Origin: Acinetobacter sp. UBA3106
GTDB taxonomy: Bacteria; Pseudomonadota; Gammaproteobacteria; Pseudomonadales; Moraxellaceae
Reading direction: 5' to 3' (one strand)
Assembly (NCBI RefSeq): GCF_002365595.1
Contig: NZ_DFAM01000016.1
Length of the DNA: 64,000 nt
The translations under genes and the position numbers were made by a program. Positions 49,874 to 64,000 of the stretch are shown here, in pieces. The number at the start of each line of letters is the position of its first letter. The stretch's first letter is position 1. The notes beneath the pieces are model-generated. The model was not told the origin of the DNA. It saw only the letters and a program-made list of their open reading frames with translations, and made no database searches.

Positions 49874-50122
49874 GTCGACGCGCTCCATAGAACTGGGTAA
49901 TGCTTACATTAACTTCGATTATAACCACCTATTAACATAAATCTAATTTATCATTTTTATTAGTTTAAAAACTTTTTGGAATTAATTTTAACGCTATAAC
50001 ACCCTGTATTTTGGCAAAATCCCCTCTCTTCTGCTCTTAAGGCAGACAGCATTCTCCTTATGATCAGGCTGGTTAAATCAAAGTCTCTAGAATGCTTGAG
50101 CAGGAAATTCAAAATTCCGAAT

Positions 50123-50314
50123 TTAGCCTGATGGATTTTCTTTCGCGGCTATAAGCTGTTCAATCGCCCGGATGAGTTCTGCTTTCGCTGCGCCGCATTC
50201 AGCCGCTGCATGATTTTCATCATCTTCATCATCGGCAATTTCATAGACCTGACTGCGTTTTTCCACCGCTTCCTCAAAAATATCAAGAAGGTATTTAATG
50301 TGTTTAATATCCAT
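50123..50314 (-). CDS. Small acidic hypothetical protein (63 aa)
   Basis: ATG at 50314 (MDIKHIKYL...) with AGGGTG 7 nt upstream. The ORF track uses the GTG at 50323. No homology is recognised. Confidence 0.4.
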   Translation of the reverse strand: MDIKHIKYLLDIFEEAVEKRSQVYEIADDEDDENHAAAECGAAKAELIRAIEQLIAAKENPSG

Positions 50315-50512
50315 AATGTTCACCCTGTTAGAAAAGTATCTCTAGAAAATAGCTCTAAGCGATACCATTCCCCTGTTGTTTATGAATTATGAGGTTTAAC
50401 CAGCCAATAATTCATAAAACCGATTAAAAATATAAAAATGTTCGTTTTTACAAATCAAATAAGACTGATTATCATTTAACCATATCCCGAGGCAAAGATT
50501 GAGGAACAACCC

Positions 50513-50755
50513 ATGGCTCATATTCAAAAATTTGTTGATAACAACCAGCGTATGTTTAAAAAAACCTTTAGCTATTACATTATGCACATCACCATTGCCA
50601 TGTTGGTCGGTTATTTCGTGACAGGAAGTATCTGGATGGCAGTGACCTTGAGTTTGCTTGAACCGACGATTCAGGCGATCGCTTTCTTCTTTCATGAAAA
50701 AATCTGGGAAGCCAAACCGGCGAAAGTGCAAAACAGCAATAACGCAGCCATCTAA
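50513..50755 (+). CDS. DUF2061-family small membrane protein
   Basis: Two TM helices and the C-terminal FFFHEKIWE (family motif HER.W). GAGGAA SD. It is preferred over the antisense 111-aa ORF. Confidence 0.65.
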   Translation: MAHIQKFVDNNQRMFKKTFSYYIMHITIAMLVGYFVTGSIWMAVTLSLLEPTIQAIAFFFHEKIWEAKPAKVQNSNNAAI

Positions 50756-50808
50756 ATATTTGCCAAGCTAGAAAAATATCATGGGTTCCGGTTTTTCACT
50801 TTACAAGG

Positions 50809-50838
50809 ATCACTTCATTCACATGAGGTGATTTTTTT
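50809..50838 (+). terminator. Rho-independent terminator
   Basis: atcacttcat-tcac-atgaggtgat followed by ttttttt. Confidence 0.75.
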
Positions 50839-50958
50839 ATTTCCTGCTTTAAGTTCACATCCGTATACATTTTTTAAGGTCTTTTTAAAGATTAAGCCCC
50901 CATTTAATATAAAAATATTTTATAATTATTTGAATTTCATATAACCAGATATCTCCTT

Positions 50959-51831
50959 ATGAATCTTGCTGCCTTTGAAGCCTTTATTAAAGTCATGGAA
51001 ACAGGTTCTATTTCTATGGCCGCTGATCTATTGTTTATTACCCAGCCTGCTGTGACCAAAAGGATTCATAGTCTGGAAGAATATTTTGGCGTGAAACTGT
51101 TTGAGTCGGCCGGTCGTGGTGTTCAGGCCACCCATGCAGCACACTCTTTATTGCCAAAAGTGAAAAACTGGTTAAATGAACTGGGCGATATTCATCATAC
51201 CCTCAGTCACGAACAGGAACAGGTGCAAGGCAAGCTGAAAATTGGCACCAGTCACCATATTGGTTTGCATCATCTACCCCAGCACCTGCGCAATTATGTA
51301 CAAAAATTCCCGGATGTGACTTTAGATGTACATTTTGTTGACTCGGAACAGGCGCATGAGCAGGTACTGGCCGGTGACCTGGAGCTGGCATTTCTGACCC
51401 TTCCGCCGCAAGGTGATGAACGCCTGAGTTACGTGACCATCTGGAATGATCCGCTGGTGTTTGTGGCAGCACCTTTTCATCCGCTGGCGCAAAAAAAACA
51501 TTTGAGTCTGGAAGATCTGGTCCAGTACCCGAGCTTATTGCCAGCATCACAAACCTATACCACGCAAATCACCTTGGCCGAGTTTGAAAAGCAAGGGGTG
51601 AAACCGAAAATTACCATGAGCAATAATCCACTGGAATCAATCCGCATGCTGGTTTCGATTGGCCTGGGATGGTCGGTATTACCAAAAACCTTGCTGAATC
51701 AGGAACTGCAACTGCTGGATATTAATGTGCAAATGAACCGTCAACTCGGCATGGTTTGGCATCCGGGTCGTACCCAGTCACGTGCGGTACAAGAACTGGT
51801 GGCCATGATGAGAAACGCCCATCCCTACTAA
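50959..51831 (+). CDS. LysR-family transcriptional regulator
   Basis: N-terminal HTH (FIKVMETGSISMAADLLFITQPAVTKRIHSLE) plus a LysR substrate-binding domain. Confidence 0.85.
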   Translation: MNLAAFEAFIKVMETGSISMAADLLFITQPAVTKRIHSLEEYFGVKLFESAGRGVQATHAAHSLLPKVKNWLNELGDIHHTLSHEQEQVQGKLKIGTSHHIGLHHLPQHLRNYVQKFPDVTLDVHFVDSEQAHEQVLAGDLELAFLTLPPQGDERLSYVTIWNDPLVFVAAPFHPLAQKKHLSLEDLVQYPSLLPASQTYTTQITLAEFEKQGVKPKITMSNNPLESIRMLVSIGLGWSVLPKTLLNQELQLLDINVQMNRQLGMVWHPGRTQSRAVQELVAMMRNAHPY

Positions 51832-61887: not shown

Positions 61888-62107
61888 AGTTAAAGATCCA
61901 TTTTTGGTTGGCAAAACATATCAAAGCCGCTCATAAAAAAAGCCGACTTGTTTCCAACCTGGATTTTTCGCATTTTTGTGTTGTGGTAATAATTTTAAAT
62001 ATTTGATTTTTAAATTAATGTACACGTGCAGTTTGTATAAAGACCATTATATTAAATAAAGCATCAAAATTAATCATGAAATTTTCAAGAAAAAATCATA
62101 AATATTT

Positions 62108-62135
62108 TTGACAAACAAAAAAAATCATGTATTAT
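62108..62135 (+). promoter_or_regulatory. Near-consensus sigma-70 promoter in front of the low-GC gene cluster
   Basis: TTGACA (62108-62113), a 16-nt spacer, then TATTAT (62130-62135), 41 nt upstream of the ATG at 62177. Confidence 0.5.
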
Positions 62136-62176
62136 TCCAATTATTAAATTTGTGATTTTTTCTGGAAAAAAACATT

Positions 62177-63109
62177 ATGTTATTAAGTTGTTTTGAATTA
62201 GATAATAAAATTATAAGCTTAGAGTCTTATTTATCGAATATATTTGAGGCTTCATATCTTCATCAGATTATTACGGAAAATTATTCAGATGATTATCTAA
62301 AAGGGAGCACAGATAAACTATTTGGTTTACCTCCAGAATCCTCTGAAATTATACATCAACCTAGTTTGTACAGTCTTGATGAAGAACTACAAAAAGTTGC
62401 GAAGCAGACTTTTATGAATACATTTATTTGTAATGCATGTCTAACTCTATATGAATATGCGGTAAATGGTATTCCGACTTCTGAACATTGGAGTGATATT
62501 GTTGAAGATGTAAATATCTATCTTCAACATATTCATAGCGACTTTTCACCTATTTCTCCTAATACACGCGTAATTGTAGATCTCGCACTTTTAAGATTTG
62601 GAATAGATGGTGAACAGGATTCAAATCATTTTATTTGTGATTTGGATAAATTCAAAGTTATTGCACTCATGGCTGATCTAGATGAGCGAACTGTAAAAAA
62701 TGCTCATTCACAAGGTTTTTTTAATGGTGATTCAGGAGATTTTGATTTTAATGCCATTAAATTATGGTTAAGCACAAAACGAGGTTTTATACCTACCAAA
62801 GGCTTAATCAAAAAGAATAGTCAATCCTTAAATGAAGTGAAAACAGCCCCAGAATTTGGTTACTTTTTAAAAGAAAAGAGAGAAAGTTTAGGGGCTTTAT
62901 TCGATCTGAAAGTATTTCAAACTAAACACTATCTTTTTGATAAAAAAACAGTTGTTGAATTAGAAAATGGTTTTTTTGATTTGCCATTAAACACAGTATC
63001 TATTCTTGCAAATGCTTATTACATAGATGAAAACGAATTTTTAAATTGTGTTATGAGAGTGTTTTTTTCTTCGGAGTTAGAAAAAATTAGAGGAATGAAA
63101 GATGCATAG
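62177..63109 (+). CDS. Hypothetical protein (310 aa) with an unknown N-terminal domain and a C-terminal XRE-like helix-turn-helix
   Basis: Very AT-rich ORF. The C-terminal segment FGYFLKEKRESLG...KKTVVELENG...LPLNTVSILANAYYIDENEF has the HTH_XRE pattern. Its stop overlaps the next ORF. Confidence 0.6.
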   Translation: MLLSCFELDNKIISLESYLSNIFEASYLHQIITENYSDDYLKGSTDKLFGLPPESSEIIHQPSLYSLDEELQKVAKQTFMNTFICNACLTLYEYAVNGIPTSEHWSDIVEDVNIYLQHIHSDFSPISPNTRVIVDLALLRFGIDGEQDSNHFICDLDKFKVIALMADLDERTVKNAHSQGFFNGDSGDFDFNAIKLWLSTKRGFIPTKGLIKKNSQSLNEVKTAPEFGYFLKEKRESLGALFDLKVFQTKHYLFDKKTVVELENGFFDLPLNTVSILANAYYIDENEFLNCVMRVFFSSELEKIRGMKDA

Positions 63110-63392
63110 TTTCAATACAACTCGCCATAGTAATAAGCGGATGAAGCAACGCGGCATTACTAAAGATATGATTGATTTTACTATTCTTTTTGGTGAAATA
63201 GATGGTGATAAATATTTTACAAATCAAAAGAATATAAAGGATGAAATATCAATGATTGATCTGAAAATTATGCAATTACGGAAATTAAGGAAGACAGCAT
63301 TAAAAGTTTTAGACAAAGGTGGGGTAACTGTTGTTGCTGATAATGGAAATATTATTTCTACTTATAATTTCAATAGTTATTTAAGTTACTAA
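63102..63392 (+). CDS. DUF4258-like small protein (toxin-type fold)
   Basis: 96 aa. TTRHSNKRMKQRGITKDMIDFTI... and ...VTVVADNGNIISTY resemble DUF4258 (H..R..eRgI ... ivTvy). There is an 8-nt overlap, ATGCATAG, with the upstream ORF. Confidence 0.55.
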   Translation: MHSFNTTRHSNKRMKQRGITKDMIDFTILFGEIDGDKYFTNQKNIKDEISMIDLKIMQLRKLRKTALKVLDKGGVTVVADNGNIISTYNFNSYLSY

Positions 63393-63433
63393 CTAAAGCT
63401 AAATCCATTCAATAAATTATTTACGAGGAATAT

Positions 63434-64000
63434 ATGGGTACTAAATCTTACTCAGAGATGGCTTCTGCCTTAAAAAAAGTTGTTATAAAATCTGATACAA
63501 CATTGGAACAGTTAGAATCTTTGAGAATTGCGAAAGATGGAGCTGTAGAAAGCTATTACATCCCGTTTGACTATCTTACACCGAACGCCAAAGTTGTTTT
63601 AGTTGGAATAACACCTGGTAAAACGCAATTATTGAATGCTCTTATTTCAGTAGAAAATTCTATTAAAAAAGGGCTTTCCACTAATGAAATTTTAAAAAAT
63701 GCTAAAGTAGAAGGAGCTTTTAGCGGAACATTAAGAAAAAACCTAGTGCAATTATTAGATTATATTGGTCTAGATAAAAAACTTGGTATTAAAAGTACAG
63801 ATTCTTTATTTAATACAAATGCACATTTAGTTCATACAACTTCTGTTTTACGTCATCCAGTTTTTGTAGATGGGCAAGATTATAGTGGTTCTACCCCTAA
63901 TATGATAAAACATCCCCTTATGGTCGATTTAATTGATAAGTATTTAAAAGAAGAAATTCGTCAATTACCTAATGCATTATATATTCCGCTAGGTCCAAAA
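63434..64000 (+). CDS. Uracil-DNA-glycosylase-superfamily-like protein, N-terminal 189 codons (3' end outside the window)
   Basis: Not in the ORF track because there is no stop before the window edge. I translated it by hand as MGTKSYSEM...VVLVGITPGKTQ...AFSGTLRKNLVQLLDYIGL...HTTSVLRHP...YIPLGPK. GAGGAA SD at 63425-63430. Confidence 0.55.
   Translation, partial: MGTKSYSEMASALKKVVIKSDTTLEQLESLRIAKDGAVESYYIPFDYLTPNAKVVLVGITPGKTQLLNALISVENSIKKGLSTNEILKNAKVEGAFSGTLRKNLVQLLDYIGLDKKLGIKSTDSLFNTNAHLVHTTSVLRHPVFVDGQDYSGSTPNMIKHPLMVDLIDKYLKEEIRQLPNALYIPLGPK

Follow-up and report, generated by a model that had tools for sequence, protein, structure and literature searches.

To what does the AT-rich DNA at the end of a 64,000-nt stretch of an Acinetobacter genome (Acinetobacter sp. 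UBA3106, contig NZ_DFAM01000016.1; hereafter the window) belong, and what does it encode? The earlier note, made from the letters of the window alone, had described a low-GC accessory segment that begins at the stop codon of a TetR gene (61887), and had suspected a defence-type system lying mostly beyond position 64000. The segment was found to be a foreign insert of about 2.15-2.18 kb, from position 62025 to about 64210, holding three open reading frames (ORFs). Our preferred reading, held with modest confidence, is that the insert is a compact mobile defence-type operon in which ORF1 would be an autoregulator, ORF3 a Brig-like glycosylase effector and ORF2 a toxin checked by ORF1. This assignment draws on sequence comparison, predicted structures and gene context. 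The three genes are listed below (UDG, uracil-DNA glycosylase; HTH, helix-turn-helix).

62177..63109, + strand: ORF1, 310 aa, putative regulator and/or antitoxin with a C-protein-like XRE HTH at the C-terminus
63102..63392, + strand: ORF2, 96 aa, DUF4258 (BECR-fold, colicin-like/Ntox49) toxin-like protein; 8-nt overlap with ORF1
63434..64000, + strand (189 codons in the window; stop at window-equivalent 64216): ORF3, 260 aa, divergent UDG-superfamily protein, putative DNA glycosylase effector

Composition and extent of the insert

G+C content (GC) was 0.283 at 62001-63000 and 0.297 at 63001-64000, against 0.35-0.50 in every other 1-kb interval of the window. The part of the insert inside the window (62025-64000) had a GC of 0.292, which gave z = -6.4 against 240 two-kb intervals (mean 0.432, sd 0.022, minimum 0.374). 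GC at third codon positions (GC3) was 0.18, 0.23 and 0.17 for ORF1, ORF2 and ORF3, whereas the TetR and AidB-like genes alongside had 0.47. By all three measures the compositional break was real, and the hand counts first offered for it (11/60, 15/60 and 24/60 G+C in single lines of sequence) were exact on recount.

The same locus was found in more than 20 public contigs by exact-protein look-ups. One of these, L003 (NCBI metagenome-assembled genome (MAG) GCA_031992345.1, ‘unclassified Acinetobacter’), agreed with the window at 3000 of 3000 bases from 61001 to its end and could therefore be used as its extension; window coordinates equal L003 coordinates plus 52176. L003 shows the end of ORF3, about 210 nt past the window edge, and then native genes. 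The island thus consists of the three ORFs only, which rules out a large island past the edge; the expectation that most of it lies beyond 64000 was wrong.

The boundaries were located by alignment to island-free relatives. The host is an uncultured Acinetobacter whose closest species representatives are ANC 4862 (AidB 92% identical), ANC 3781, A. terrestris, A. bouvetii and A. celticus. On the left, two features were distinguished.

61888..62024, + strand: native AT-rich TetR-distal intergenic DNA with a hairpin (61896-61964) and T-run; not part of the insert
62025..62058, no strand: left junction zone of the insert, set by the ends of homology in ANC 4862 (L016; 62024) and in a related MAG (L025; 62058)

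The first of these aligned at 77-87% to the island-free loci of ANC 4862, the related MAG and ANC 3781 (L017). Homology ended at 62024 against ANC 4862, at 62019-62058 against the related MAG and at 61954 against ANC 3781. The bulged hairpin folded as had been described (minimum free energy -21 kcal/mol, z = -2.3, 5/200 shuffles as good). It is native TetR-distal sequence kept in ANC 4862, ANC 3781 and the related MAG, and its proposed role as island junction or attachment site was ruled out on that ground; with its T-run it is probably the TetR terminator. The drop in GC does begin at the TetR stop as had been stated, but foreign DNA starts only at about 62025-62059. On the right, homology resumed at window-equivalent 64209-64213, that is, at the last codon and stop of ORF3.

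None of ORF1, ORF2 and ORF3 was detected by tblastn at the homologous locus of 14/14 Acinetobacter species. All 17 contigs with an identical TetR carried the cassette, which therefore appears to be fixed in the host species. Absence from the locus in other species, foreign composition, and homologs on plasmids or near insertion sequences (IS) and integrases bear out the horizontally acquired segment of non-housekeeping genes that had been postulated. Two findings that would have spoken for ordinary chromosomal DNA, core status in relatives and equally low GC in downstream housekeeping genes, were both contradicted, the former by the 14 species and the latter by a GC of 0.38-0.57 in the genes from about L003 12150 on.

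A similar picture might have come from native DNA of low regional GC, without horizontal transfer, or from an artefact of annotation: the first 137 nt 3' of TetR are native and have a GC of 0.29 as well, and the other GC dips of the window are intergenic. The low GC of the insert covers 2.2 kb of closely packed coding sequence with GC3 0.17-0.23, however, and recovers immediately afterwards; 14 related species lack the genes at this site although both flanks align, and the encoded proteins have conserved homologs elsewhere. This explanation, which we rate as extremely improbable, was refuted by GC3, by absence at the orthologous site and by the recovery of GC. The two other dips were at 8001-9000 (0.348), 5' of thyA and 3' of a 173-aa ORF, and at 50001-51000 (0.368), with leuC on one side and a LysR-type regulator on the other; both are ordinary intergenic DNA, not islands.

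ORF3 is a divergent UDG-fold protein

Full-length ORF3 (WP_291355567.1) matched the Pfam UDG family (PF03167) with 26.5 bits (gathering score 24.3, E = 7.8e-6); the 189 residues encoded in the window gave 16.8 bits, below the Pfam threshold. Among 24 sequences, down to 45% identity, motif A (VGITPGxTQ) had invariant I59, P61 and G62, with G58 and T60 in at least 90%, and motif B (PHPSGAN) had invariant P213-H214-P215-S216-G217. F96-S97-G98 was invariant too. Motif A corresponds to the water-activating G-x-x-P-G loop of UDGs, and motif B (H-P-S) carries the His that stabilises the leaving group. The AlphaFold2 model (pLDDT 94.2, pTM 0.90) had the UDG alpha/beta fold. When it was compared with the PDB using Foldseek, the top 23 matches were all of the UDG superfamily (family 4, SMUG1, UdgX, the family-1 UNG BdiUNG, TDG) with probabilities up to 1.00, and E. 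coli MUG stood at rank 32. The best match was the family-4 UDG of Sulfolobus tokodaii. The best matches in a viral structure library also belonged to the UDG superfamily. Neither the ORF3 sequence nor its family profile matched any PDB sequence, whether of a solved UDG or of a Brig structure. Judged by its motifs and predicted fold, ORF3 represents a real but very divergent UDG-fold family.

Canonical UDGs share the alpha/beta fold with ORF3 and differ from it in detail. Motif A reads GITPG in ORF3, against GINPG in MUG, GMNPG in SMUG and GEAPG in family 4; motif B, with its invariant His, reads HPSG in ORF3 against HPSP. ORF3 further differs in having about 45 extra N-terminal residues, helical insertions and Thr in motif A, and in being an accessory foreign gene.

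About 2500 close homologs were found, and the family comprised 1460 clusters at 50% identity in a library of 1.8 billion proteins. NCBI names homologs ‘uracil-DNA glycosylase family protein’. The family was present on 35 plasmids, where it was always annotated as hypothetical. It had 0 matches in 50,697 phage genomes, and a phage origin of ORF3 was rejected on this count. Many members (P0129-P0264) were 370-600 aa long, with N- or C-terminal extensions of 100-340 aa, and Pfam detected only UDG in them. PF20118 was found on one close homolog (P0014, 382 aa).

ORF1 and the promoter region

The near-consensus promoter and the three tightly packed same-strand ORFs of the earlier description were both present. 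The promoter is bracketed by two operator-like sites:

62077..62098, + strand: operator-like palindrome 1, TGAAATTTTCAAGAAAAAATCA, 5' of the -35 element and within a 31-nt inverted repeat (I1)
62108..62135 (L003 9932-9959), + strand: predicted sigma-70-type promoter, TTGACA-16-TATTAT, 11/12 consensus matches, the best in the region
62153..62174, + strand: operator-like palindrome 2, TGATTTTTTCTGGAAAAAAACA, between the -10 element and the ORF1 start, with 3 mismatches

The 22-nt palindrome TGAAATTTTCWRGAAAAAATCA was matched twice in the 64-kb window, where 0.01 matches were expected, and the two sites form an inverted repeat around the promoter. A second Acinetobacter cassette (ORF1 41%, ORF2 54% and ORF3 72% identical, same 8-nt overlap; loci L096-L098), which lies in different, IS-rich surroundings, carried an exact copy of the palindrome just 5' of its ORF1. 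Its upstream DNA was otherwise unalignable, yet it held the same TTGACA promoter flanked by inverted copies. In sequence, the layout of these sites resembles an autoregulated operator pair akin to those of C-protein circuits.

Behind the second cassette (L096-L098, 6009-10783) there was always a gene for a 991-aa protein, weakly matched by Phage_integrase, and one for an unannotated 739-aa protein on the opposite strand; the left side of the cassette varied, with IS21, IS3 or IS6-type elements or a resolvase. The region may be a larger mobile element.

No described family includes ORF1. It had no Pfam, NCBIfam or PADLOC match, and only 6 sequence relatives were found in 5.8e9 proteins. Its AlphaFold2 model had a pLDDT of 79, and the only credible fold match concerned the C-terminal ~67 aa. 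This domain resembled C.AhdI, C.BclI and lambda cI (probability 0.96, TMt 0.63), the best match being C.AhdI with 27% identity over 67 aa. Relatives of ORF1 were 213-464 aa long. Their common core (alignment A6) contained Y[DE]YA..G, AR..LD, the HTH segment ‘IALLAxMxERSVRNA’ and ‘RxWLxxRRGFxPT’; a short form of 221-233 aa, found at 8 loci, consisted of the core only.

The C proteins C.AhdI and C.BclI thus share an HTH fold with the predicted C-terminal domain of ORF1, and the two sites, one 5' of -35 and one 3' of -10, are placed as in the C-box arrangement. Such circuits control when, after horizontal transfer, an effector that could poison its own host is expressed. ORF1 has four times the size of the C proteins, however, and the cassette has no methyltransferase or restriction endonuclease.

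On plasmids, ORF1 had one distant match only. In Caballeronia sp. M1242 (L116, NZ_CP071130.1, 4956-8134), a 304-aa ORF1 relative (26% identity) was followed by a 149-aa ORF and by the Shedu gene sduA (PADLOC, E = 4e-166). This suggests that the ORF1-like family is a regulator or adaptor common to different defence effectors.

ORF2 and conservation of the gene set

ORF2 matched DUF4258 (PF14076) with 25.4 bits (cutoff 25, E = 1.8e-5), residues 7-38 aligning to profile positions 2-33 of 71. In PADLOC v2 it matched PtuB only, and not significantly (E = 0.016). DUF4258 has been placed among BECR-fold RNase toxins (PMC11980606; bioRxiv 10.64898/2026.08.28.747851). In PMC11980606 it appears among the toxin families of RelE/ParE-superfamily or colicin-like type, with antitoxin-toxin gene order and a target entered as unknown. 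In no fewer than 14 further loci, an ORF2-like protein of about 90 aa was encoded between the ORF1-like gene and the UDG gene, and a motif, H-x3-R-x2-QRGI, is common to ORF2 and the ~90-aa proteins of other trio loci.

Metagenomes were scanned with the ORF3 family profile, yielding 80 loci, and hidden Markov models made from the first examples were applied to the neighbouring genes. Among 48 distant loci (other organisms, at least 1.5 kb of upstream sequence), an ORF1-like gene lay directly 5' of the ORF3-family gene in 20. A DUF4258-like gene of about 90 aa lay between the two in 9 of those 20 and was missing from the other 11. Synteny of the trio held where ORF3 identity was only 42-52%. DUF4258 was never found beside a UDG gene without an ORF1-like gene among the loci with a long enough flank. 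In the reverse direction, three ORF1-like proteins picked from a profile search were in each case (3/3) followed by a DUF4258-like gene and then by a 259-aa gene, and the ORF3 family was confirmed in two of the three. Either as the full trio or as an ORF1-like gene with UDG, the operon is conserved in many distant metagenomic loci, and it forms a widespread unannotated module in which DUF4258 is optional.

In the third locus of the reverse search (L199, 6266-7045, 259 aa), membership of the ORF3 family was unsupported (hhalign probability 1.7%). The protein still has the motif-like strings VLVLGFSKGPTQ and HVEHFASQGA; it may have a UDG fold that has diverged very far, or the effector may have been swapped at this locus.

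The gene order also admits a simpler account, in which the cassette holds two independent passengers: a type II toxin-antitoxin (TA) addiction pair (ORF1-ORF2) and ORF3 as uncoupled cargo. ORF1-ORF2 has co-oriented genes with an 8-nt overlap, the putative antitoxin first, which is the classic type II TA order and the one listed for DUF4258 (PMC11980606), and palindromes at the promoter, from which autoregulation may be expected here. The pairing of ORF1-like and DUF4258-like genes persists at 31% identity (L118). ORF3 homologs often stand alone: neither partner gene was present in 28 of the 48 loci, nor beside P0012, P0094 and P0097, so the glycosylase gene can do without them. Type II antitoxins have about 70-130 aa, however, against 310 aa in ORF1, which carries a large extra domain and is linked equally to the third gene. 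The ORF1-like core pairs with UDG without DUF4258 in 11/20 ORF1-positive loci, the short core-only form being found at 8 loci, and because this pairing persists without DUF4258, the link of ORF1 to the glycosylase-like gene is no looser than its link to the toxin-like gene. With DUF4258 never beside UDG in the absence of an ORF1-like gene where the flank was long enough, and with the trio kept at 42-52% ORF3 identity, independent passengers are an unlikely explanation, though one that retains some weight.

Further variants of the gene set were seen. At L117 (1370-3076) an ORF1-like (50%) and an ORF3-like gene (63%) lie beside DUF7230/ptsP, at a different site about 3 kb to the left of the one used in the window, with a scaffold gap of N between the two genes that would conceal an ORF2. 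Two distant trio loci (L129, 8765-9190; L201, 6111-6518) had an extra XRE-type protein of 135-141 aa (43% identical); one locus has it 3' of UDG, the other between its ORF1-like gene and its DUF4258 gene.

Genomic context and the defence reading

UDG-fold glycosylases have been shown experimentally to act as anti-phage effectors in Brig1, Brig2 and Brig3, and Brig2 homologs were reported to favour AT-rich, mobile contexts (PMC11078745; bioRxiv 10.1101/2025.10.29.685425; bioRxiv 10.64898/2026.02.25.707755). ORF3 is like these proteins in its predicted fold and in its accessory AT-rich, mobile or defence-island contexts. Brig1 has the same best structural match as ORF3, the Sulfolobus tokodaii family-4 UDG. 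Brig2 resembles the ORF3 family in being mostly from Proteobacteria, with some Firmicutes, in occurring in Vibrionaceae and in having hundreds to thousands of homologs. Six ORF3-family accessions were absent from the part of the Brig2 homolog listing that was covered. Brig1 and Brig2 act as single genes and Brig3 acts with the glucosyl-hydrolase BapA, whereas ORF3 stands in an operon with HTH and DUF4258 proteins.

The neighbours of ORF3 homologs point the same way. In the A. calcoaceticus/baumannii complex, homologs adjoin Zorya type I, GmrSD and a restriction enzyme. Another adjoins a type I HsdR and a type IV secretion system, and a further one a 2092-aa DEAD/YjiV_N/MZB helicase. Among 105 neighbour proteins from 53 metagenomic loci, matches were found to DruH (2), DruE, ZorA, HEC-05, PDC-S35 and RtcR (3). 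The defence association of the ORF3 family is suggestive and of moderate strength. A defence-type function, as first surmised, is the best reading, given homologs near Zorya, GmrSD, type I restriction-modification (R-M) and Druantia genes.

ORF3 might instead serve accessory DNA repair, as a glycosylase for deaminated, oxidised or alkylated pyrimidines under a stress-responsive HTH regulator, with no role in phage defence. All characterised fold-level relatives of ORF3 are repair enzymes (family 4 UDG, SMUG1, UdgX, MUG/TDG) and the NCBI name of its homologs fits repair. The cassette is fixed in the species, beside oxidative-stress genes (a katG remnant and an AidB-like gene), and many ORF3 homologs have non-defence neighbourhoods. 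Against these stand the strongly foreign composition, the absence from sister species, the patchy distribution associated with plasmids and IS, the link to a toxin-like gene and the repeated adjacency to Zorya, GmrSD, Druantia, R-M and Shedu genes. A sister species holds type IV restriction-like genes at the same site, and ORF3 has no sequence-level likeness to the repair UDGs of the PDB, even with a profile. A pure repair role therefore appears improbable on the balance of this evidence.

Several observations weigh against a defence operon. Foldseek scores of ORF3 against solved UDGs were weak (E = 2.7e-3, TM 0.38-0.49). At the catalytic position of motif A, which is Asp in UNG and Asn in MUG/SMUG, ORF3 has Thr, so its competence as a catalyst cannot be taken for granted. 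The DUF4258 match of ORF2 is marginal and covers the N-terminal third only, and an antitoxin of 310 aa, as ORF1 would be, is unusually large. In 28/48 loci the ORF3-family gene had neither partner. Only about 8-10 of the 105 neighbour proteins matched defence models, as a raw count without a background rate, and the commonest neighbours were GGDEF/EAL/PAS signalling proteins, probably through conserved synteny in one lineage. ORF1 and full-length ORF3 had no match in PADLOC-DB v2.0.0; the PADLOC check proposed earlier thus found no v2 model for any of the three proteins. Fixation in the species fits domestication as well as defence.

If the insert is a defence operon, it might work as follows. 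A dimer of ORF1 would bind both palindromes bracketing the promoter, and the operon would be autoregulated in the manner of R-M C proteins or type II antitoxins. ORF3 would flip out and excise a non-canonical base, probably a modified pyrimidine, from invading phage DNA, as Brig1, Brig2 and Brig3 do. Replication of the phage would be blocked by the abasic sites so formed, and host DNA, being unmodified, would be spared. ORF2, as a BECR-fold RNase-type toxin held by ORF1, would supply a second, abortive-infection layer or serve as an addiction module stabilising the cassette.

A more speculative arrangement, to which we give a low probability, is an integrated circuit. The UDG-fold protein would sense, and perhaps excise, the modified base of a phage, and would signal via ORF1 to release or induce the DUF4258 BECR RNase, leading to abortive infection. 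Were this true, the ORF1-like core would be a new defence adaptor or regulator family, wired to other effectors too (Shedu in Caballeronia).

Not until 2024 was it recognised that glycosylases can confer immunity to phages with modified DNA, and such immunity is so far known from single genes (the Brig1, Brig2 and Dag families) or from Brig3-BapA. An HTH-DUF4258-UDG operon was not described in the literature searched, which did not extend to subscription-only papers. If the defence reading is right, this UDG-fold family, very large with its 1460 or more clusters at 50% identity, would be a further defence glycosylase family, with about 40% of its members wired to an unannotated HTH protein and about 20% also to a BECR-type toxin. 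It might have a new substrate specificity, relevant to the design of phage therapy against Acinetobacter (homologs in the A. baumannii complex lie beside Zorya and GmrSD). It would also give DUF4258 its first functional context, and the regulator family common to Shedu loci would be new. Should ORF3 prove to belong to the Brig2 family, the novelty would lie in the conserved partner genes.

Insertion site and acquisition

No integrase or IS element was found among the genes called around the insert, no tRNA in 21 kb and no Rfam family in the region scanned. A repeat scan revealed no target-site duplication and no meaningful flanking direct or inverted repeat, only weak AT-rich pairs at chance level. 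The statement that integrase, tRNA, IS element and direct repeats are missing was upheld. The insert shares with classical genomic and defence islands its deviant composition, its absence from relatives and a site that holds defence genes in a sister species; it differs in its size (2.18 kb, three genes) and in lacking integrase, tRNA, IS and direct repeats.

Alignment to relatives, recommended as a check, located the boundaries and gave no clean empty-site allele: in none of the 14 species sampled did the left flank abut directly on the right flank, because each holds other cargo or a catalase gene there. Nor did the contigs with an identical TetR offer an empty allele within the species, as all 17 have the insert. 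The interval between the 3' end of TetR and the 3' end of the catalase gene is a cargo-swap hotspot (loci L016-L029) whose content differs by species:

L017, ANC 3781: Sel1-repeat gene
L020, A. bouvetii: ALTTAQ-repeat gene
Another Acinetobacter species: alcohol dehydrogenase (Zn-ADH)
Another Acinetobacter species: Rrf2 regulator and membrane protein
A MAG: ORF-less DNA of 0.25 GC
L016 (ANC 4862), 373-9096: IS-like transposase (HTH + rve_3), two GmrSD_N/DUF262 proteins and a group II intron reverse transcriptase with HNH

Of the type IV restriction-like GmrSD_N pair of ANC 4862, the closest species, the 671-aa protein matched the PADLOC HEC-06 and SspE-like models and the 779-aa protein had no PADLOC match. 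Three unrelated cargo genes, ORF3, the Sel1-repeat gene and the ALTTAQ-repeat gene, share a common stop base at the right flank, ATTTAATAAT..CTAAAATTAACA, which may reflect shared use of a terminator or a recombination site. A compact, integrase-free cargo-swap hotspot is thereby documented in Acinetobacter.

Acinetobacter is naturally transformable. The insert was most likely acquired by homologous recombination via the conserved flanks. This is the simplest route because no integrase or recombinase, IS, tRNA, repeats or target duplication were found, and the coincidence of the insert boundaries with conserved flanks suggests replacement by such recombination.

To the right of the insert, a strong bidirectional terminator 3' of ORF3 (L003 12120-12147, -17.3 kcal/mol, z = -5.2) lies in the native flank; it had been missed by the terminator scan, which yielded none. 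It is followed, in order, by a 91-aa minus-strand ORF, DCC1-like, DoxX, metallo-beta-lactamase-fold, cation-efflux and EamA genes, and an aromatic-ring dioxygenase cluster. The 91-aa ORF (L003 12167-12442; window-equivalent 64343-64618) is what remains of a decayed katG. In relatives with a full-length katG, the stretches matching its residues 9-51 and its residues 49-91 lie about 740 nt from each other; the first ~430 codons have been lost. In some strains of the same species the remnant is 78-82 aa long or is not called.

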